A stretch of DNA of 64,000 nucleotides from Cetorhinus maximus (taxonomy: Eukaryota). Shown piece after piece: positions 21,201 to 23,338 of this stretch. The position numbers and the translations under genes are program-made. Positions within the stretch are counted from its first letter, which is position 1; every line of letters starts with the position of its first letter. The DNA is taken from contig NC_135909.1 of NCBI RefSeq assembly GCF_964194155.1, positions 3,038,001 through 3,102,000 on the forward strand. Direction: 5' to 3'. The notes beneath the pieces were generated by a model. It saw nothing but the letters and a program-made list of their open reading frames with translations. It was not told where the DNA came from and ran no database searches.

Positions 21201-23338
21201 CAGCCCCTACAACCCTCCCAGTCTCTGTCATCTCCTCCAGCCCCTGCAACCCTCCCAGTCTCTGTAATCTCCTCCAGCCCCTACAACCCTCCCTATCTCT
21301 GTAATCTCCTCCAGCCCCTACAACCCTCCCAGTCTCTGTAATCTCCTCCAGACCCTACAACCCTCCCAGTCTCTGTAATCTCCTCCAGCACCCACAACCC
21401 TCTGAGATCTCTGTGCTCCCTCTAATTCTGGCCTCTTGCGCGTCCCCAATGAGAATTGCTCCACCATTGGTGGCTGTGCCTTCAGCTGACTAAACCCCAG
21501 ACCCTGGAATTCCCTCCCCCACCCTCTCCACCTCACTTTATCCCTTTAGAGTTAAAACCTAACTCTTTGTGGTCATCTGATCTAATATCACACCACGTGC
21601 CTTGGTGCCATACATCGTTTTATAATGCTTCTCTGGAGCACCTTGGGTCACTTCATTAGCATTAAAAGTGCTATATAAATAAAAGTTATTGTTGTTAGTC
21701 AAGGCTGCCAAGCTCCTAATGTAACCAAGAGCCCCCCCAACTCTGTTGGTTTGTTTCCAGGACATTGTTATCCAACAAGATGATGAAATTCGACTGAAGG
21801 TCGTAGGAACCAGAGTAGATAAAAACGACATAGTAAGTACACAGCCCAGTGTTTTGCAAATTATTTTGTAATGGCTGCCCGCGTATTAGGTGACGAGTGA
21901 CTTCATCTTTAAAAAAATTATTTTTGTTCGTCAATAACTGTGTTGGTAAATGTACTGAGATGCGCGCACACACATGGGCACACGCGCACATGGACACACA
22001 CACACACACACACACACGGGCACATGCGCGCGCGCACACACGGGCACACATGCACACACGTAGGCGCACACACGGGCACACGCGCACACGAGCACAGACA
22101 TACACATACGCGCGCACACGGGCACACGCACCAGGTTTGATTTCCCCGTCACCATGAATTAGCCTGTCAGGGACCACGACAATTAGCTTCTGTGCTCCTG
22201 GCCTGGGAAGGGGGGGCATCCTCGTCCCACTCCCCATCGCTCTCCAGCAAACTCTGCTGGAAGAGTACGCCATGTGGGACAACATCTGGAGAGTGTGGGG
22301 GTGGGAGGGAGATGAGGTTTTTGTTTTTTTACTTTGCGCAGCGTGGTGTTGTGCTCCAGAACACGCTGCCTGAAAGGGGCGGCGGAGGAAGCAGATTCAA
22401 TGGGAATTTGGTGTGCATTTGAAAAGGTAACTGGTCGCCGGGCTGTGGGGACAGGGTGAGCGGGGGTGGGGCGGGGGTGGGTGCAGTGCTGAGACTAATT
22501 GGACAGCTCTCCCAAAGAGTCGGCACAACGCGGTGGGCCGCTTTCTCCACCGTGAGAATCTGTCTTAACAGGGCCCGGCCCAGCTGTGCCTCCCCACACA
22601 TGGCTGAAGACTGCCGATACTTTTGAAGAAGCTCGCGGGATCCTGGTGCTTGTGGCATGTCAGGGTCACGGCGGAGGGAGTGGGAGGGGACCCTGGCTTC
22701 TTACGCGCCCGTTTTTACTTACAGGAGTTGAGTTCAGAGCTCCGATAACCTGTACTCTCTCCTTTTCCCTTCTCTTCCAGTTTGCCATTGGCTCTTTGAT
22801 GGACGACTACTTGGGTAAGTGTGACTGCTGTGTCTGTCCAATGGGGGCGTACGCCTGTCTTGTTCATTGGGTGTCTTCGCTAGATTGGGTTACGGTGTGT
22901 GGGGAGTAATAGTTGAGGCTGAACCCCACAGGCGAGCAGGCATGTACTGCTGTCACCAGGTTCCCATTGTACGAGGGTTAAGTCTGAAATAGGCTCGAGG
23001 TCCATAAGGTGGTATCCAGTGCACCGTTAGGTGCAGAGTAGGAGTGGAGCATCGTGTCGATGACTGCAGCCTTAAACTTCAGAACTCAACGAGTTGGGAA
23101 AAGCTTACTCAACCCCTCAGTGCTTAACCAGCATTGCTGAGCGAAGACTGGTGCTTGCACGTGAGCACGTAGAGGAATTACCTAACCAGCGACAGCAGCA
23201 AGTGTAGTGCCTGAACCTGCAACACCGGCATCAGCCTTGGTGGGGGGTGGAGCTGGATCTGTTATTTTATTCATTGTGGTCTCTAATGATTGAACCTTTT
23301 CATCTGTCTTTCCCCCTCTTGCAGGACTTGTGAGCTAA
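9229..23338 (+). CDS. POLR2G: RNA polymerase II subunit RPB7, complete 8-exon CDS (172 aa)
   Basis: Exons 9229-9240, 12436-12545, 16486-16645, 17667-17717, 19265-19330, 21761-21832, 22781-22814, 23325-23338. All introns are GT-AG and the exons sum to 519 nt. Translation [57 protein letters not shown]...[15 protein letters not shown] is near-identical to vertebrate RPB7. Confidence 0.98.
10320..10870 (+). mobile_element. CR1 LINE 3' fragment
   Basis: [15 protein letters not shown]...[17 protein letters not shown] followed by a CR1 3' tail. Confidence 0.85.
10990..11440 (-). mobile_element. CR1 LINE fragment
   Basis: ORF 11093-11410: [20 protein letters not shown]...RRLRGD. Confidence 0.85.
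12721..14525 (+). mobile_element. 5'-truncated CR1 LINE (RT domain, frameshifted) in POLR2G intron 2
   Basis: [69 protein letters not shown], and a TTCTTATG-type tail. Confidence 0.95.
14590..15060 (+). mobile_element. Deu-domain (SacSINE1/AmnSINE-like) SINE
   Basis: tRNA-like head GGCCCAGTGGGTAGCACTCTTGCC, central GGAGGTGCCATCTTT...GATCCCACGGCACT...GAAGAG, and tail GGGATCTTGCTG...CCTACATTACAACAGTGACTAC. Related fragments at ~1-110, 11600-11950, 28940-29130, 32410-32660, 35750-36020, 48880-49200 and 63040-63290. Confidence 0.7.
17020..17627. repeat. 48/51-bp minisatellite, ~12 copies
   Basis: Unit ACAGAGTCACTGTTTATTCAG(CAG)GGTAAGGGTCACTCACTGTGTAACTGT. Confidence 0.95.
18195..18775 (+). mobile_element. 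CR1 LINE 3' fragment carrying a ~113-bp Harbinger-type MITE (18339-18452)
   Basis: [18 protein letters not shown] is split by GGGCAGAATTTT...AAGATCCTGGCC, with a TTG duplication at the junctions. Confidence 0.8.
19520..19935 (-). mobile_element. L1/Tx1-clade LINE 3' remnant
   Basis: [34 protein letters not shown] resembles the C-terminus of Tx1 ORF2. Confidence 0.7.
20809..21400 (+). repeat. 37-bp minisatellite (~16 copies) inside an L2-type LINE 3' end (~20520-21690)
   Basis: Unit CCCTATCTCTGTAACCTCCTCCAGCCCCTACAACCCT, flanked by [17 protein letters not shown] coding remnant and an L2 tail. Confidence 0.93.
21960..22130. repeat. CA/CG-rich microsatellite
   Basis: Degenerate (CA)n/(CG)n tract. 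Confidence 0.9.
22838..23245 (+). ncRNA. Candidate structured RNA element in POLR2G intron 7 (unidentified)
   Basis: Nested complementary segments found by eye: 22914-22922/23231-23239, 22929-22932/23216-23219, 22937-22942/23208-23213, 22947-22954/23191-23198, 22970-22973/23168-23171, 22975-22983/23107-23115, plus several internal hairpins. G-U pairs favour the + strand. No family recognised. Confidence 0.4.

Follow-up and report, generated by a model that had tools for sequence, protein, structure and literature searches.

The fold drawn in the last intron of POLR2G in Cetorhinus maximus probably reflects chance pairing in an ordinary single-copy intron

Candidate structured motifs have been described in vertebrate introns, among them those in EEF1A2 and ZNF516, and are proposed to act on splicing (PMC7941889). 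These motifs show covariation across many species, whereas the POLR2G intron considered here has three compensatory pairs between two species, and the string 'POLR2' does not occur in the main text of that paper. Intronic H/ACA, C/D and composite scaRNAs resemble the POLR2G intron in size, in residing in an intron of a housekeeping gene, in having a long irregular stem with a branched head, and in the presence of H-like and ACA motifs. Composite scaRNAs of the U85/U87 type are ~270–330 nt long. Unlike scaRNAs, the intron lacks a C box, a kept D-like tetramer, a hairpin separating H from ACA and a match in Rfam, and its sequence is conserved no better than its flanks. The proposed element is also similar in length to vertebrate telomerase RNA (RF00024) and nuclear RNase P RNA (RF00009). 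The literature on POLR2G (introns and RNA structure, snoRNA hosting, intron retention) and on autoregulation through the last introns of Pol II subunits yielded no such element, although supplementary screen tables could list it. Two papers that mention POLR2G name it just as an RNA-binding protein.

The window, which is the whole 64,000-nucleotide stretch that was analysed, contains a gene model of eight exons (9229–9240 to 23325–23338) that encodes an open 172-amino-acid protein, with GT-AG ends at all seven introns. Exons 2 and 3 matched Pfam SHS2_Rpb7-N (E-values of 6 × 10−5 and 0.003, below the cut-off as fragments), and weak S1 matches were found for exons 3 and 6 and none for exon 5. 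From these Pfam exon matches, together with what is known of the RPB7 gene, we take the gene to be POLR2G. For comparison, 24 sequence runs were matched, 20 of which, from three organisms, contain part of intron 7. Four were aligned at 80% likeness: three RNA-like runs, two from organism B and one from organism C (23063–23226), and a DNA-like run that spans the intron from end to end in organism B. Intron 7 was skipped exactly in two of the three RNA-like runs aligned (contigs X19 and X20), while the third showed the exon 7–8 join as a loose end. The intron has the length of 510 nt that the initial annotation had given it, and GT-AG ends. It is free of tandem arrays, in line with the absence of simple repeats stated there; introns 3, 5 and 6 do carry arrays. 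Searches of the 4.0-Gb genome with the whole intron as DNA, with its two halves at E ≤ 10, and with a 26-base pattern allowing three mismatches each returned one match, so that the proposed check of copy number showed a single-copy sequence. The end of the gene is laid out as follows.

22781–22814, plus strand: POLR2G exon 7 (34 nt), from the gene model and aligned contigs
22815–23324, plus strand: POLR2G intron 7, the last, GT-AG, 510 nt, single copy, without tandem repeat, from the gene model and a 510-nt skip in contigs
23325–23338, plus strand: coding part of POLR2G exon 8 with the stop codon, followed by the 3′ UTR, from the gene model and contigs

The next gene downstream of POLR2G is PLD3/PLD4-like, lies on the minus strand at ~30100–36900 and converges on POLR2G (PF13918, E-value of 1 × 10−8; best PDB match PLD3). 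One of its exons is at 32166–32327, and the exons read lie beyond 30100. In or after the POLR2G 3′ UTR, positions 23775–24027 hold a palindromic MITE-like element with 32-nt arms that are 81% complementary (z −4.9 to −6.3), of which lookalikes were seen by eye near 9650, 11700 and 31690–31880. Within the 3′ UTR, 61 nt at 23473–23533 are swapped for 21 other letters in all four aligned runs (organisms B and C). In intron 6, the stretch 22200–22599 is unique-looking and G-rich, may be a repeat, and had sense z of −4.4 and −2.3 in fixed tiles, stronger than intron 7. A 36-nt stretch with 83% identity is common to introns 7 (23227–23262) and 5 (20236–20268; E-value of 0.008 within the window) and is possibly a repeat scrap. 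At the 3′ end of intron 6, the stretch of polypyrimidine tract and acceptor (22762–22782) is 76% complementary over 21 nt to positions 23083–23103 of intron 7, and by hand count the two changes that organism B has there keep or add a pair. This pairing could loop out exon 7, with the caveat that purine runs readily match such tracts; two inverted repeats neighbouring it (22723–22738) are broken in organism B.

The initial annotation had drawn by eye, within intron 7, a long irregular stem with a multibranched head, and had called the whole highly structured. The drawn stems are present letter for letter, with 81 of the 82 pairs in 14 main helices canonical and two bases claimed by two helices each. 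The parts that bear on its interpretation are the following.

22929–23219, plus strand: drawn long stem and multibranched head; 21 substitutions and no indel relative to organism B, thermodynamically not beyond chance
22947–23198, plus strand: 8-bp helix (22947–54/23191–98); both arms unchanged in organism B and so uninformative, predicted on both strands
22970–23171, plus strand: 4-bp helix (22970–73/23168–71); one compensatory change from C-G to U-A, both sites CpG
23118–23136, plus strand: 7-bp hairpin with a 5-nt loop, in which organism B has compensatory changes at two pairs (23121/23133 and 23124/23130); an organism C mismatch at the first of these pairs, ensemble probability 0.01
23020–23035, plus strand: 6-bp hairpin; probability 0.97, three of six pairs broken in organism B in this register
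22838–22870, plus strand: hairpin close to the 5′ splice site, with a z of −1.3; organism B breaks one of its pairs

The description as highly structured was not confirmed by comparison with shuffled sequences, the yardstick that the initial annotation had itself proposed: by energy, intron 7 folds no better than they do. Sense z was −0.33 and −1.01, with +0.45 for the whole intron, and windows trimmed to stems reached −1.1 to −2.2. With fixed tiles of 300 nt beginning at 22800, 22900 and 23000, z was +0.3 to −0.4 on the sense strand and −1.3 to −1.7 on the antisense strand. The drawn structure has an energy of −70.3 kcal/mol against a minimum free energy (MFE) of −109.6, and six of its 14 helices have a mean probability of at most 0.25 (0.25 for H4 and H6, ≤0.10 for H8, H11, H12 and H13). 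In the whole-intron fold the outer stem has a probability of 0, which recovers in part once flanking exon sequence is included. Between the two halves of the intron, the best imperfect inverted repeat reaches a score of 21, a value at the mean of the shuffles and equalled by 521 of 1000 shuffles and by 134 of 240 window tiles. G-U pairs had been said to favour the sense strand, but the antisense strand folds better (z −2.90, and −2.0 to −4.3 in trimmed windows). By hand count, single changes in organism B make G-U pairs at three sites on the sense strand (22941, 23137 and 23217) and at three on the antisense strand (23020, 23032 and 23212), which leaves no signal for either strand. As a calibration of power, copies of RNase P RNA from the same genome scored z −0.6 and −1.6 and the TERC locus −0.9/−2.0. 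Because the genome's own RNase P RNA scores only −0.6, folding z is a weak measure that cannot refute an ncRNA.

Organism B is a relative at ~93% identity. Its substitutions number 21/290 (7.2%) in the core of the drawn structure (22929–23218), 16/220 (7.3%) in the rest of the intron, 22/288 (7.6%) in exon 8 and the UTR, and 8/221 (3.6%) at the end of intron 6 (Fisher P for the core against these three: 1.0, 0.88 and 0.09). With this one full ortholog, the core shows no sequence constraint above its flanks. The 3′ end of intron 6 (22560–22780) was itself less diverged than intron 7 (8/221 against 37/510), a difference that is not significant. A scan with an exon 7/donor motif found ten animal-type metagenome loci with an intron at the same place, none of which resembled intron 7 (best E-value 1.7). 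The position of the last RPB7 intron is common to these ten loci, in which the intron is often short; by eye the acceptor lies ~80–180 nt on in six of them.

In the site-by-site comparison, which runs to 23218, paired sites make up 49% of the core and contain 15 of its 21 differences. Among the 12 affected pairs, six break, three become G-U and three are compensatory, compared with 5.99 broken and 0.29 compensatory pairs under a CpG-aware null; transversion sites were scored as broken pairs. The three compensatory pairs (22972/23169, 23121/23133 and 23124/23130) lie in helices that were fixed beforehand, and have a P of 0.001–0.002 under this null. Circular shifts gave at least three compensatory pairs in 2 of 609 cases and at least two in 11 of 609. 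When the two compensations in one hairpin are counted as a single event, P is 0.02–0.03, and the excess is the one strong signal among ~10 tests. Five of the six compensatory sites are CpG in one species, as counted by hand. Elsewhere, the perfect 9-bp helix favoured by the whole-intron fold (22873–81/23140–48) has two breaks in organism B, and both side helices of the initial drawing have one break each. In favour of a structure, the only substitution within the 9-column head helix hits its single mismatched column. The differences are not significantly clustered (P 0.12–0.24). Folding with pairs required in both species was no better than random placement on the sense strand (152 of 250 nulls) and worse than 209 of 250 nulls on the antisense strand. 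With a covariation bonus, the counts were 134, 156, 92 and 75 of 300 nulls, the power of the joint-folding test being uncalibrated. On covariation, one full and one partial ortholog gave a divided result, with three compensatory pairs on one side, and null-level pair breakage and joint folding on the other. An alignment of two sequences can hardly decide for or against a conserved structure, and PMC11234323 treats a missing covariation signal without power as undecidable.

We consider it probable that intron 7 is an ordinary single-copy GT-AG last intron, in which the drawn fold is chance pairing in neutrally drifting sequence. Direct observations support the structure of the gene, the removal of the intron by splicing, its presence as a single copy, folding within the range of shuffles and divergence at the level of the flanks. 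The major spliceosome would remove such an intron without needing the drawn structure. The three paired changes may have arisen neutrally, through CpG-type transitions that struck short stems on both sides, and template switching possibly aided those in the hairpin at 23118–23136. Template switching has been described as a mechanism by which several bases of a hairpin can change in a compensatory manner (10.1101/2021.04.15.439925). As organism C has three of the four changes in the hairpin considered here, one event does not account for the full set.

It is possible, if doubtful, that the last intron of POLR2G instead holds a lineage-restricted structured cis element of roughly 270 nt (22942–23211), which folds on the sense strand in the pre-mRNA, is maintained in this fish lineage through compensatory substitutions and controls splicing or retention and, through them, the supply of RPB7. 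Such an element would bring the intron ends together or bind a factor, tuning how far the last intron is spliced or retained and hence RPB7 output, and its peripheral hairpins would vary with compensation. The three compensatory pairs (P ~0.002) argue for it, as do the unchanged arms of the long inner helices in organism B and a core without an indel in 290 nt, compared with at least 10 events, many of them in base runs, over 762 nt of flanking sequence (P 0.04). By hand, a model of 69 pairs built post hoc can place the 16 inner differences in loops, wobbles and compensated pairs, but at −54.3 kcal/mol it lies 29 kcal/mol above the MFE of −83.5. The substitution rate, which is not lowered, the null-level breakage, the unclustered differences and the joint folding, which does not exceed its null, argue against the element. 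So does the hairpin with two compensations, which has an ensemble probability of 0.01 and contains the organism C mismatch.

Pieces of the intron occur in all three RNA-like runs, each of which has contigs inside intron 7, a point in favour of a cis element. On the side of an ordinary intron, contig X9 spans exon 7 (from 22786) into the intron to 23247, and X9 and X20 both pass the proposed 3′ end. The RNA status of the runs is a tool's guess, and the contigs carry no ends, strand or level; RNA-like contigs are absent over 22560–22754 in intron 6, a gap without evidential weight. Unspliced pre-mRNA or DNA is the likely source of the RNA-like contigs within intron 7, and the assembled contigs show no sign of a discrete RNA from it.

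An intron-encoded guide-type RNA, that is, a divergent H/ACA or C/D sno- or scaRNA processed from the lariat, is very improbable. Its host would be a housekeeping gene, an H-box-like hexamer lies at 23171–23176 and an ACA at 23222–23224, and one organism C contig ends ~4 nt after this ACA, but two further contigs extend beyond that end. H-like hexamers are found at 23035, 23171 and 23192, and motifs this short are common. The 45-nt spacer from H to ACA has a z of +0.85 and 162 of 200 shuffles fold as well, so there is no hairpin there. No C box was found at one mismatch or fewer on either strand, the last D-like tetramer (23211) is altered in organisms B and C, and Rfam gives no match.

For the known classes of intron-encoded ncRNA (snoRNA/scaRNA, TERC, RNase P RNA), the evidence is exclusionary. 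Rfam 15 gave no match in the window at the gathering score, and at E ≤ 10 there were five chance hits (E-values of 5–9.5), all on flanks or splice-site ends. This agrees with the earlier statement that the intron is unlike RNase P, TERC and known sno/scaRNAs, since no Rfam match falls inside it even at E ≤ 10. The genome's own TERC lies elsewhere, on contig C20 (170.6 bits), and RNase P RNA has nine matches above the cut-off on other contigs, which leads us to reject both readings. BLAST of intron 7 against these loci gave matches of 17 nt only, and a few short motifs in the intron resemble those of TERC or RNase P RNA. Six of the nine RNase P RNA matches cluster at C1:229.8–231.2 Mb and the rest are on C8, C13 and C20, an expansion or a pseudogene cluster. 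ARAGORN found no tRNA in intron 7, and a scan with consensus motifs, which also supplied the box motifs above, found no hammerhead core motif, Sm site or cloverleaf. Stop-free frames inside the intron reach at most 55 amino acids, giving no sign of a coding remnant. A poison exon at 22960–23160, suggested by an internal GTGAG at 23161, was set aside: the aligned contigs, which cannot show absence, contain no such joint.

Equally remote as an account of the stem is an RNA from the antisense strand, or the decayed remains of a MITE-like insertion with inverted repeats. The best antisense z of −4.3 in trimmed windows was reached by 0 of 39 trimmed shuffles, but trimming to the closing stem in shuffled introns gave z ≤ −2.8 in 7 of 39 (those scored having a pair spanning at least 250 nt), so that the choice of boundaries accounts for most of that signal. 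The antisense strand has an internal T4 run and folds jointly at the null level given above, the inverted repeat is at chance level, and the sequence is single copy even at three mismatches in 26. A multicopy TE or MITE is rejected on the same inverted-repeat result and on the lack of dispersed copies in these searches, although the intron may conceivably contain a very old relic of low copy number.

The balance is against the initial reading of intron 7 as a structured element or ncRNA, which we regard as the less probable side: folding is no better than that of shuffles, conservation does not exceed the flanking level, and pairs are broken as often as expected under neutrality. Known classes of intron-encoded ncRNA are excluded and no discrete RNA was seen, while the three compensatory changes in helices fixed beforehand speak for the cis-element part of that reading. 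If intron 7 is ordinary, it is a lesson in how easily a unique intron of ~300 nt gives a convincing fold by eye. If the three compensatory pairs mark a real element, introns would have gained an RNA structure that Rfam lacks, and one that offers a testable handle on how a core subunit of Pol II is controlled after transcription.
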